Part shown: piece by piece, positions 5,508 through 8,982 of the stretch
Layout: the number at the start of each line of letters is the position of its first letter
How positions within the stretch are numbered: the first letter of the stretch is position 1
Assembly (NCBI GenBank): GCA_965246935.1
Contig: CBDFGC010000006.1
Coordinates: 293,961 to 357,960 of the forward strand
Reading direction: 5' to 3'
Length of the DNA stretch: 64,000 nucleotides
From: Chitinophagaceae bacterium
GTDB taxonomy: Bacteria > Bacteroidota > Bacteroidia > Chitinophagales > Chitinophagaceae
Made by a program: the position numbers and the translations under genes
Notes under the pieces: generated by a model
Seen by the model: only the letters and a program-made list of their open reading frames with translations
Database searches by the model: none
What the model was told of the DNA's origin: nothing

Positions 5508-7181
5508 ATGCCCAAAGACAATTCCATTACATCCGTTCTTATTATCGGCAGTGGCCCCATTATTATTGGCCAGGCCTGCGAGTTTGATTACAGCGGTACC
5601 CAGGCGGCCCGCAGCCTGAAGGAAGAAGGCGTTCGGGTTACGCTTATCAACAGCAACCCCGCTACCATTATGACCGACCCCATGATGAGCGACAAAGTAT
5701 ATCTGCTGCCTTTAACCGTAGAAAGTATCGAGCAAATTTTAGAAGAAAATATGCAGCATTCTGAAAACCGGATTAATGCGGTATTGCCTACCATGGGTGG
5801 CCAGACCGCTCTGAACCTGTGTAAGGAAGCCGAGGAGCTTGGCATTTGGGAAAAGTATAACGTACGGCTGATTGGCGTGGATATAAAAGCCATTGATAAA
5901 GCCGAGGATCGGGAAAAATTCCGGCAGTGGATGATACAAATGAACATACCGGTATCCCAGGCACGTACCGCTAATAGTTGGCTGGAGGGTAAAGAGTTTG
6001 CACAGGAAATCGGGTTTCCGCTGGTAATCCGGCCCTCGTTTACACTGGGCGGTACCGGCGGCGGTTTTGTACACGATAAAAGCGAACTGGACGAAGCCTT
6101 GCACCGGGGCCTGGCCGCCAGCCCCATGCACGAGGTGCTGGTAGAAAAAGCAGTCATCGGCTGGAAGGAGTTTGAACTGGAACTATTGCGGGATTCCGCA
6201 GATAATGTGGCTATTATTTGCACCGTGGAAAATTTCGATCCTATGGGTATTCATACCGGCGACAGCATTACCGTAGCCCCGGCCATGACACTAAGCGATA
6301 CTGCATTCCAGCTAATGCGGGATACCGCCATCCGTATGATGCGGGAGTTGGGCCAGTTTGCCGGCGGTTGTAATGTGCAGTTTGCGCTAAACCCGGTTAC
6401 GGAAGAAATTATTGCGGTTGAAATTAACCCACGGGTAAGCCGCTCCTCTGCCTTGGCAAGCAAAGCCACAGGCTACCCCATTGCGAAGATTGCGGCTAAG
6501 CTGGCCATTGGTTATCATCTGGATGAACTGAAAAACCAGATTACCAAAACCACCAGCGCCTATTTTGAACCGGCGCTGGATTATGTTATTGTAAAAATGC
6601 CCCGCTGGAATTTTGATAAGTTTAAGGGTGCCAACGATACGTTGGGCCTGCAAATGAAAAGCGTGGGCGAAGTAATGGCTATTGGCCGCAGCTTTACCGA
6701 AGCTATTCAGAAAGCTTGTCAGAGTTTGGAAAATGAAGCTGTGGGCCTGGGTTATTATGGTAAAAGCATGATGTATAGCGGAGAATTAATTGAATACTTA
6801 AAAGTGCCGAAGTGGGACCGGGTATTCCGTATAAAAGATGCACTAATGCTGGGCGTAAGTATTAAAACCATTTGCGAAGCCACCCGCATCGACCGCTGGT
6901 TTATTTACCAGATAAGAGAGATTGTGCGTACGGAACAGGAGATTGCGAAATACAACGGCGATACATTGCCGGATGATTTGCTGATACAGGCTAAAAAACA
7001 GGGCTTTAGCGATGAGCAGATTTGCCGCATCATCAAAGACGGTACTACGGAAGATGAGCTATACGAACGCCGCAAAAAAATGGGCCTTACCCGTGTGTTC
7101 AAAATGGTGGATACCTGTGCGGCTGAGTTCGAAGCCAAGACACCTTATTTTTACAGTACGTTTGAAACGGAGGGAAGTTAG
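5508..7181 (+). CDS. carB: Carbamoyl-phosphate synthase large subunit, N-terminal half (ATP-grasp 1 + oligomerisation domain)
   Basis: [67 protein letters not shown]; ends ...[20 protein letters not shown] at the position of the E. coli CarB interdomain linker. Confidence 0.9.
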   Translation: [557 protein letters not shown]

Positions 7182-7304
7182 TTTTTTCACCACAAAGGAA
7201 TATAAGGAGCACATAGGTTCACATAGAAATACAACACATTAGAAAGAATTGTTAGAAAAGAGTAAAGCTCCGTTATAAAATAAACAGTTGTCAGCGGAAG
7301 TATT

Positions 7305-7778
7305 ATGAACCCTTCACCAAATAAAAAGTATCCATATCAGGTTTGGGGATCAACTCTAATTTCTACTCCAATTGTAATTTCCTTAATGAAGCTTATTAAA
7401 AACTATTCTTTATTTAGTCCAGAAAGTTTAGGATCTGAATTTATATTTATACTATTCATACTTTTTATTAGTGTAATAACTTCCTTACCAGCACTTTTTC
7501 TGTATAGATTTTCTTTTGCAAGATTTTCTCACCTCTCTATTTCATTTGTCCGGGTTAAATCCATTCTGTCCTTTACAGCTATCTGCTCTACTATATTGAC
7601 ATTCATTTTAGTTGATAAGATACTCATTGAATTGTGGAGAAAAGGATTAAGTTCCATAGAAATTACAATTGCCTACCCGGTTATCTATTCAATAACAATA
7701 GCAGTAACAGGTTACTATTTTAAACTCACTGATAGTGAGGAATGTTCCACCCGCACAACTTTAAACTTTAAACTTTGA
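7305..7778 (+). CDS. Hypothetical small multi-pass membrane protein, AT-rich, inserted between the two carB halves
   Basis: 157-aa ORF, 4-5 hydrophobic helices, markedly lower GC than flanking carB; no recognisable family. Confidence 0.4.
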   Translation: MNPSPNKKYPYQVWGSTLISTPIVISLMKLIKNYSLFSPESLGSEFIFILFILFISVITSLPALFLYRFSFARFSHLSISFVRVKSILSFTAICSTILTFILVDKILIELWRKGLSSIEITIAYPVIYSITIAVTGYYFKLTDSEECSTRTTLNFKL

Positions 7779-7800
7779 ACCTGAAACGGTTTTCTGAACA

Positions 7801-8982
7801 ATGAACCATAACGAATCCATCCCCTCCAACCGTAAAAAAATAATTGTACTTGGCAGCGGCCCGAACCGCATTGGCCAGGGCATTGAGTTCGACTATTGCT
7901 GTGTGCACGGCCTGCTGGCCATTAAGGAATGTGGCTACGAAGCCATCATGGTCAATTGCAACCCGGAGACGGTAAGTACCGATTTCGACATTGCCGATAA
8001 ACTGTATTTCGAACCCGTTTTTTGGGAACACCTCTGGGAAATTATTGAGCATGAAAAACCCGAAGGCGTCATCGTTCAACTGGGCGGGCAAACGGCACTG
8101 AAATTAGCCAGGCGGCTTCATGCAAAAGGTATTCGCATTATGGGCACCAGCTACGATAATATGGACATTGCCGAAGACCGTGGCCGCTTTAGCGATAAGC
8201 TGAAAGCTTTGGGCATTCCTTTTCCCCGTTATGCGACTGCCTATAATACCGACGATGCCATAGAAGCCGCACGGGAAGTAGGCTACCCGGTGCTGGTGCG
8301 GCCCAGCTATGTATTGGGCGGCCAGCGTATGCGCATTGTGCTGAATGATGAGGAACTGGAGAGCGGCGTATTGAGTTTACTAAAGCATTTACCCGGCAAT
8401 AAAATCCTGATCGATCATTTCCTCGACCGCTGCCAGGAAGCAGAAATTGACGCCATTTTTGATGGCGATGATTTTCATGTAATGGGCGTAATGGAGCATA
8501 TTGAACCGGCCGGTATTCATAGTGGCGACAGTAATGCCGTATTGCCAGCTTTTAATCTTACCCCGTTACTGGTTACGACTATGGAACACTATGCCGAAAA
8601 AATTGCCCGTGCATTAGAAATCCGTGGCCTTATCAATATTCAGTTTGCTATAAAAGACAATACCGTATTTGTAATTGAAGCTAACCCACGTGCCAGCCGC
8701 ACTACCCCGTTTATTGCCAAAGCTTACCAGATCCCTTACCTGAACGTTGCTACCAAAGTAATGCTGGGCGAAGCAAAACTGAAAGACTTTACATTCGAGA
8801 AAAAGATGCAGGGCTTCGCCATTAAGGAGCCGGTTTTCAGTTTCGATAAATTTCCGGGTGTAAATAAGGAATTAGGCCCTGAAATGAAAAGCACAGGTGA
8901 AGCTATCCGCTTTATCAAAGATCTGCGGGACCCCTACTTCAGACAATTATATAAGGAGCGCAGTATGCACCTCAGTAAATAA
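7801..8982 (+). CDS. carB: Carbamoyl-phosphate synthase large subunit, C-terminal half (ATP-grasp 2), lacking MGS-like allosteric domain
   Basis: [67 protein letters not shown]; own ATG start; ends just before where allosteric domain begins in E. coli CarB. Confidence 0.9.
   Translation: [393 protein letters not shown]

Follow-up and report, generated by a model that had tools for sequence, protein, structure and literature searches.

In Aquifex, CarB, the large subunit of carbamoyl-phosphate synthetase (CPSase), is encoded by two half-genes that are not adjacent; the split is old and its cause is no longer visible. A similar carB split is present in Methanocaldococcus jannaschii. The separate CarB halves of Aquifex aeolicus and the glutaminase subunit form an active glutamine-dependent enzyme, as shown by Ahuja et al. 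2001 according to PMC6022934. There the large subunit is divided between its homologous ATP-grasp halves and the two polypeptides must associate. Here we describe a comparable division of carB in Chitinophagaceae bacterium, within a stretch of 64,000 nucleotides (assembly GCA_965246935.1, contig CBDFGC010000006.1, positions 293,961 to 357,960 of the forward strand; hereafter the window). In the window, carB consists of two intact open reading frames (ORFs) separated by an AT-rich cassette that carries the gene for a small membrane protein, here called ORF157. We read the locus as a recent insertional gene fission, in which the cassette would have entered the linker of carB and the two-piece enzyme would have been retained, and we give this reading a probability of roughly 0.8. 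Unlike in Aquifex, the two half-genes lie side by side and are probably co-transcribed, the event appears recent, and its presumed cause is visible as an insert with an 8-bp duplication. The host also differs from Aquifex in being a mesophile-type member of the Bacteroidota, with an enzyme that has no MGS allosteric domain.

Another comparable case is the mitochondrial cox2 gene of Campsomeris wasps, which is split by inserted DNA with its own ORFs (PMC5374615). In both cases the gene of a core enzyme is divided by an ORF-carrying insert into two complementary genes, which are expressed in the wasps and presumably so in the window. However, the cox2 insert lies in an animal mitochondrial gene, is 3 kb long and has a putative homing nuclease, the proposed cutter, whereas the window insert has neither nuclease nor transposase.

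The features of the split locus are listed below in window coordinates. L001 is the same locus in a second genome (Logan assembly of run SRR12105370), and L017 is the nearest unsplit relative.

5508-7181, +: carB N half (carB-N), 557 amino acids, carboxyphosphate ATP-grasp domain and oligomerisation domain (ORF list, Pfam and NCBIfam matches, mapping on E. coli CarB)
7163-7170, +: left copy of the 8-bp direct repeat TGAAACGG (repeat family D17), putative target-site duplication, within the original FET codons
7171-7781, +: AT-rich inserted cassette of 611 bp (599 bp in L001), made up of a 134-nt leader, ORF157 and 3 nt (composition, flanking repeats)
7305-7778, +: ORF157, small membrane protein of 157 amino acids with four long predicted helices (ORF list, family search, AlphaFold2)
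7782-7789, +: right copy of the 8-bp direct repeat TGAAACGG (repeat search; conserved in L001)
7782-7800, +: non-coding spacer before the C half, left over from the ancestral linker (comparison with L001 and L017)
7801-8982, +: carB C half (carB-C), 393 amino acids, carbamoyl-phosphate ATP-grasp domain, with an ATG in frame with the ancestral linker

The initial annotation, made by a model from the sequence alone, had described carB as split at the interdomain linker into two intact ORFs, each with intact ATP-grasp motifs. Domain searches bear out the coordinates, the lengths and the break point. The N half matches CPSase_L_D1, D2 and D3 (PF25596, PF02786 at 1-210 of 211, and PF02787) and covers positions 1-543 of the 1058 positions of NF003671 with 832 bits. 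The C half matches CPSase_L_D1 and D2 (PF25596, and PF02786 at 1-206 of 211) and covers positions 543-924 of the same profile with 553 bits. The Pfam ATP-grasp matches of both halves are essentially full length. With respect to the CarB family (NF003671 / TIGR01369), the N-half domains are present in 5508-7181 and the second-half domains in 7801-8982. A single CarB chain of ~1050-1070 amino acids with a C-terminal MGS-like domain was not found; there are two polypeptides, and the profile is reached only to position 924 of 1058. In E. coli CarB, the junction between the oligomerisation and carbamoyl-phosphate domains lies at residues ~550-557, a position that we take from published boundaries. 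In alignments with that protein (PDB 1BXR/1A9X), the N half reaches to about residue 550, and the C half picks up at residue 557. As in the Aquifex-type split, the break lies between the homologous halves and comes with separate stop and start codons.

Neither half has a PF02142 match, which agrees with the earlier remark that the C half is without an MGS domain. Any tie between this absence and the split falls away. Because unsplit relatives of 939-969 amino acids also have no PF02142 match, the missing MGS domain is an ancestral family trait unrelated to the split.

The insert differs from its surroundings in composition. GC content is 0.275-0.335 over 7200-7800 and 0.31 for the insert, versus 0.44-0.585 within carB, and the GC content at third codon positions (GC3) of ORF157, 0.25, is the lowest among 20 window genes (mean 0.45, standard deviation 0.08). 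A search for element boundaries at 7182-7800, which the initial annotation had proposed, found the direct repeat TGAAACGG, which abuts the insert at both ends in the window and in L001. The original TTT GAA ACG G (FET) ends in the left copy, and the final three codons of carB-N (EGS) and its TAG stop are insert sequence. The right flank resembles an intact linker. The linker of L017 reads GAAACGGGTTCCCATACC (ETGSHT), versus GAAACGGTTTCCAGAACA (ETVSRT) in L001, with 13 of 18 nucleotides identical in a by-eye count. In P0017, the nearest unsplit sequence by identity (88.4%, 950 amino acids), TTC GAA ACG GGT TCC CAT ACC encodes FETGSHT. carB-C begins at the ATG at 7801, a Met codon that stems from the old linker and lies 11 nt beyond the right repeat. 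The right flank is therefore old linker, this ATG lies in the old frame, and the insert is 7171-7781. Composition, ORF and repeats thus agree with the claim that an AT-rich insert of about 0.6 kb with a small membrane-protein gene breaks carB at the linker. Short direct repeats of the ACATAG(G) type are seen at 7190-7235, at the left end of the insert. This left end is also the sole part of the insert with indels relative to L001 (12 gap columns in the 123-nt leader).

The spacing of the two repeat copies (window, 619 nt; L001, 607 nt) is 1 mod 3 in either genome, and therefore excision of the insert with one repeat copy rejoins the halves in frame. In L001, the linker that results is open and stop-free, with ETVSRT in frame. 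Flanking 8-bp repeats of this kind would permit precise excision and would suit an intron-, intein- or skin-like element that is excised, spliced or bypassed, with single-chain CarB still being made. We consider such a removable element highly improbable. The spacer in the window has acquired a TGA, and the rejoined linker would read FETVF*TMNH; restoration of the linker is therefore not under selection. In 5000-9500, Rfam gave no intron or ribozyme family at E<=1, and no Rfam family of any kind matched within 7182-7800. The insert encodes no recombinase or endonuclease, and the protein it does encode is predicted to be four long helices. Furthermore, the stop codon of carB-N and the start codon of carB-C are both conserved. 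The insert lies between a stop and a new start, its leader has stops in all frames, and no ribozyme structure or in-frame protein-splicing domain of a self-splicing intron or intein was found in it.

The unsplit relatives date the event. The initial annotation had expected a single carB gene of ~950 amino acids in related genomes, and the matches listed for the N half bear this out: the other 119 best homologues are all single proteins, of 939-969 amino acids and 83-87% identity. They come from Terrimonas, Agriterribacter and other Chitinophagaceae and have no MGS domain. Their linker has the form STFE-[3-16 variable residues]-NES-x4-KKKIIVLG. Since all nearest relatives are unsplit, the fission of carB appears to be recent. 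In a neighbour-joining tree of 937 CarB columns with 200 bootstraps, the window and L001 form a pair with 100% support, nested among unsplit sequences. Two further split loci, L010 and L016, form a second pair (97.5%) within a 100% clade that also holds the unsplit P0059, P0088, P0094, P0096 and P0116. The window is 85% identical to L016, versus 88% to the unsplit P0017. The four split taxa are monophyletic in 0 of 200 bootstraps, and each pair lies among unsplit sequences, so the tree points to at least two independent fissions at the same carB linker in Chitinophagaceae. The split, which the initial annotation had called unusual in Bacteroidota, is not unique, as a second clade of the same family is split too.

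L001 comes from an independent assembly and has the same 557 + 157 + 393 arrangement, with the same junctions and repeats and the same downstream gene of 211 amino acids. Between the window and L001, amino acid and nucleotide identity are 98.2% and 88.5% in the N half, 98.7% and 90.2% in the C half, and 76.6-78% and 86.7% in ORF157, in which 37 of 157 residues have changed. Synonymous divergence (dS) and the ratio of nonsynonymous to synonymous divergence (dN/dS), estimated by the Nei-Gojobori method, are 0.74 and 0.017 for the N half, 0.64 and 0.010 for the C half, 0.90 and 0.059 for the downstream gene, and 0.25 and 0.47 for ORF157. Third codon positions hold 167 of the 192 differences in the N half and 104 of the 116 in the C half. 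The 950 CarB residues show 15 amino acid changes and no indels or stops. These values indicate strong purifying selection on both half-genes, which would make them functional genes and not remnants. With dN/dS of 0.010-0.017 on both halves, the two-piece CarB is very probably functional, as in Aquifex. The comparison of two genomes that share the insertion thus speaks for the claim that the gene survived as a two-piece enzyme, and the decay of one half, named by the initial annotation as a contrary sign, is not seen: neither half has a frameshift or stop in the window or in L001.

The same comparison bears on two other explanations. Insertions into coding sequence usually inactivate genes, and within the 64-kb window no second carB-like sequence was found and no carA was seen. 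The halves might then be decaying in a cell served by a further carB copy or supplied with arginine and pyrimidines from outside. This is very unlikely in our view. At a dS of 0.64-0.74, dN/dS is nevertheless only 0.010-0.017, ORF157 between the halves has accumulated its 37 changes over the same comparison, and all domain matches of the halves are full length. The second explanation is an artefact of assembly or sequencing, such as a chimeric contig or a mis-joined repeat, given that the source appears to be a draft contig. However, the independent run SRR12105370, 10-13% diverged in nucleotide sequence, gives the same junctions, repeats and ORF lengths, and because an independent assembly has the same arrangement, we leave an artefact next to no probability.

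A second, Ginsengibacter-like fission has a different cargo. The 90%-identity cluster of the C half has 150 members, including complete proteins of 397 amino acids from a Ginsengibacter metagenome-assembled genome (MAG) and many metagenomes. In loci L010-L013, carB-N (552 amino acids where complete, in L010) ends exactly with ...STFE*. The gap holds an 80-amino-acid UPF0175 antitoxin gene followed by a DUF3368/COG2405 PIN-like toxin gene, and the C half of 397 amino acids starts with MNNNIIYNES.... This toxin-antitoxin split locus is seen at L010:5615-9194 and also in L011-L015 (MAG GCA_051959325.1 and JGI metagenome contigs), L014 and L015 being short contigs with only part of the arrangement. 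The UPF0175/COG2405 pair is a recognised toxin-antitoxin module (PMC5499597). It is absent from the window and resembles ORF157 in being a small self-contained cassette. In each of the five loci examined (L010-L014) the antitoxin is intact and the toxin reading frame is disrupted; the lesion is a stop in L010, and L011-L014 have frameshifts. The antitoxin cluster includes a member found on up to 20 contigs; if these copies also occupy the carB gap, this split form would be common in environmental samples. In L016:1-2414 (Logan SRR33557411), the N half likewise ends with STFE*, followed by a 20-nt AT-rich spacer TATTTGATTTAAAAAAATAA and a C half that starts with MSTDILRNES..., and the N-half stop and the C-half ATG are in different frames. 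L016 represents either the ancestral state of the toxin-antitoxin clade or the scar of a lost cassette.

These loci raise the reverse order of events, in which a small lesion first divided carB and the ORF157 cassette later landed in an existing gap. The sister lineage L010-L015, with its toxin-antitoxin cassette, shows that the gap can hold different cargo. The same split without an insert, which the initial annotation had listed as evidence against an insertion, is indeed seen in L016. However, the clade of L016 is separate from the window lineage in the tree and split independently, and L016 therefore does not refute an insertion here. The N half of the window runs through TGAAACGG into the insert and has no STFE* stop as in L016 and L010. 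When the insert is taken out of L001, an uninterrupted in-frame linker resembling that of unsplit relatives is left. We therefore regard a split before the cargo as quite unlikely.

The cargo gene of the window belongs to a family of its own. The initial annotation had suggested a search of the 157-aa ORF against membrane protein families, and no annotated family was found: ORF157 has no Pfam, NCBIfam or PADLOC match and one insignificant PHROG match (E 0.017). One close homologue, also of 157 amino acids, was found among 5.8 billion clustered proteins, and it is located on L001. A profile search of 1.84 billion representatives gave 27 relatives at E<=1e-3, all of 128-160 amino acids and many with near full-length alignments. 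The family alignment shows an N-terminal NKxYPxxVW motif, SLPxLxxY and four hydrophobic helices, with W14 and P62 invariant; ORF157 itself has the family length, the NKxYPxxVW motif, the four helices and both invariant residues. The few relatives with a named source are from Chitinophagaceae or Spirosoma, and all are called 'hypothetical'. ORF157 is a member of a rare, unannotated Bacteroidota small-protein family. An AlphaFold2 model with the family alignment as input has four long helices (predicted local distance difference test, pLDDT, 87.4; predicted template modelling score, pTM, 0.81), and a search with it gave no specific structural neighbours. Elsewhere, family members are found after ruvC, after an MBOAT gene and after a 52-aa ORF, and never at carB. 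At L005:6001-6988, a distant relative lies just downstream of ruvC, beside a gene for a Y1 (IS200/IS605-type) transposase. In the window and L001, ORF157 has no stops or indels over 474 nt, and the other two frames have 11-17 stops; a stop-free ORF157 alone has p ~0.12 under random substitution. The gene appears to be maintained as an ORF with weak constraint on its sequence, and it looks like a passenger without a role in the synthetase.

Several points weigh against a recent insertional fission. L016, split with a 20-nt spacer and no cargo in another clade, makes a split before the cargo possible in principle. The searches turned up neither a transposase nor terminal inverted repeats nor a second copy of the element. 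The only ORF of the insert is the membrane protein, and the best end-to-end inverted match of the insert was reached by 196 of 500 and 401 of 500 shuffles. A blastn search with the insert as query yielded only short chance matches in the window and in loci L002-L009, and protein-pattern scans and an exact 23-mer scan gave no further copies of the insert or ORF157 in GTDB species genomes or JGI metagenomes. The 8-bp repeat alone could be due to chance, at a rough order of 1e-3 to 1e-2. We infer the activity, co-transcription and assembly of the halves. A second intact carB might also lie beyond the 64-kb window; redundancy with such a copy is unlikely because of the very low dN/dS. The last point is the silent divergence of the insert. 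Four-fold degenerate sites that differ between the window and L001 number 5 of 46 in the insert and 145 of 384 in carB (Fisher p = 1.4e-4), and such a low value does not fit one old insertion followed by vertical descent.

The lack of mobility genes also bears on what kind of element this is. Like a non-autonomous insertion sequence (IS) or miniature inverted-repeat transposable element (MITE), the insert is ~0.6 kb long, has an 8-bp target duplication and carries no transposase of its own. Unlike these elements, it has no terminal inverted repeats or detected copies, and most of it is a conserved protein-coding gene of a chromosomal gene family. The earlier description as mobile or foreign stands as far as composition and the 8-bp duplication go; with no transposase or terminal inverted repeats, the word mobile covers those two features only.

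The anomaly in silent divergence extends beyond the insert. The downstream gene differs at 39 of 77 four-fold sites (0.51), and the insert, at 0.11, is set apart from the rest of the locus at 0.37-0.51. The differences in ORF157 are spread evenly over the codon positions (20, 20 and 23). AT-biased mutation was considered as a cause and rejected, as the two AT-rich regions downstream are the most diverged of all: the gene (GC3 0.32) reaches a four-fold divergence of 0.51, above any other region, and the spacer an identity of just 75%. In a change-point scan of third positions, with wide support intervals and two sequences compared, the best low-divergence tract was 7112-8025 (0.158 vs 0.297, permutation p ~0.01). 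It consists of the insert with ~60 nt on its left and ~225 nt on its right, has about a third to half of the silent-site divergence seen in the rest of the locus, and suggests a younger, possibly recombined allele. A model with a single change-point picked first a high-divergence tract in the N half, at 5798-6065 (about codons 97-186 of carB-N), where third-position divergence is 0.50 vs ~0.25 elsewhere in carB. Recombination may have brought this tract in from a more distant lineage. With a low- and a high-divergence tract, the locus appears to be a mosaic. Homologous recombination via the conserved carB flanks may have moved the insertion allele between lineages. Alternatively, constraint at the nucleotide level may keep the silent divergence of the insert low.

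Candidate expression signals lie on both sides of the split gene.

5465-5472, +: Bacteroidota-type -7 promoter motif TATTTTTG, a match to TAnnTTTG, 36 nt upstream of the carB-N start
9001-9025, +: intrinsic-terminator-like hairpin and T run after carB-C (hairpin conserved in L001)

TAnnTTTG is the Bacteroidetes promoter consensus, and TATTTTTG is likely to be the promoter of the whole carB-N / ORF157 / carB-C unit. L001 shares a block around the motif, CCCTGTATTTTTGCGCC, despite rearrangement in the remainder of the upstream region and a different gene upstream. A further terminator-like hairpin lies at 5100-5122; between the carB halves neither such a hairpin nor a conserved promoter motif was found. 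A candidate internal promoter was rejected: the sole nearby TAnnTTTG (7157-7164) is carB coding sequence and is not conserved in L001. Matches to sigma-70-type promoters were likewise set aside, as their count is at chance level. The start of carB-C lies 22 nt beyond the stop of ORF157 in an A/T-rich context. One transcript with three independently translated ORFs would be the simplest model. Upstream of the carB promoter, at 5369-5415, TATCCCA and CATCCCA repeats are clustered, and the strand that carries them is strongly C-rich (GC skew -0.53). Repeats of this sort are found upstream of carB in L001, despite a different neighbouring gene, and at 30239-30258 on the minus strand of the window. 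The cluster may be a regulator-binding array.

In the insertional fission that we favour, the ancestor would have been an ordinary single-chain, MGS-less carB of ~951 amino acids, the usual form in Chitinophagaceae. The 611-bp cassette would have integrated in the variable linker that joins the oligomerisation domain to the second ATP-grasp half, with duplication of the 8 bp TGAAACGG. The N half now stops three codons into the insert, and the C half starts at the Met codon left from the old linker. One transcript, started at the promoter near 5465 and ended at the terminator near 9001, would cover the three ORFs, and ORF157 would make use of carB transcription as a passenger with no part in the enzyme. 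The two CarB polypeptides and CarA would assemble non-covalently into an active CPSase, by analogy with Aquifex. The linker would be a permissive breakpoint, which could be why a second Chitinophagaceae clade split independently at the same place.

Elsewhere in the window, a type I restriction-modification locus occupies 32554-41200, with hsdM at 32554-34719 and a low-GC3 hsdS at 34716-35912. Its hsdR is seemingly broken into the overlapping ORFs 38725-39912 and 39530-41200, probably by a frameshift, and the 2.8-kb stretch 35913-38724 has no ORF of >=200 amino acids. An ISAzo13-family DDE transposase is encoded at 51474-52517 (PF07592, E 9e-89); no link between it and the carB insert was found. 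A 1248-aa ORF at 10389-14135 combines a GH18 chitinase-like domain, a polysaccharide deacetylase and a family-2 glycosyltransferase with a low-complexity insertion, an unusual fusion.

In a limited literature search, which is weak evidence, no published case of a divided carB in Bacteroidota, or of fission recurring at this linker, was found. A tentative idea, which we consider unlikely, is that in Chitinophagaceae the carB linker serves small selfish cassettes time and again as a 'safe harbour'. If it is, a cassette would be transcribed from the promoter of an essential gene, would be shielded since its imprecise loss destroys carB, and could spread between lineages by homologous recombination via the conserved carB flanks. 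This would explain two fissions with unrelated cargo, the low silent divergence of the insert and the tract 7112-8025. The split also has a practical side. Annotation pipelines label the C half only as 'ATP-grasp domain-containing protein', so that such genomes could be wrongly called auxotrophic for arginine or pyrimidines.

Gene fissions are far less well recorded than fusions, and most leave no trace of their cause. In this locus, the insert, the duplication and the linker remnant can still be read, and the outcome is measurable. Both halves are under strong purifying selection, and fission has occurred at least twice at one linker in one family, with different cargo. The locus would be a natural, recent counterpart to the split CPSase of Aquifex, with the linker between the two halves of CarB as a permissive breakpoint. 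It would offer a tractable system for the recruitment of a new internal translation start and for the way in which essential genes may shelter selfish cassettes.

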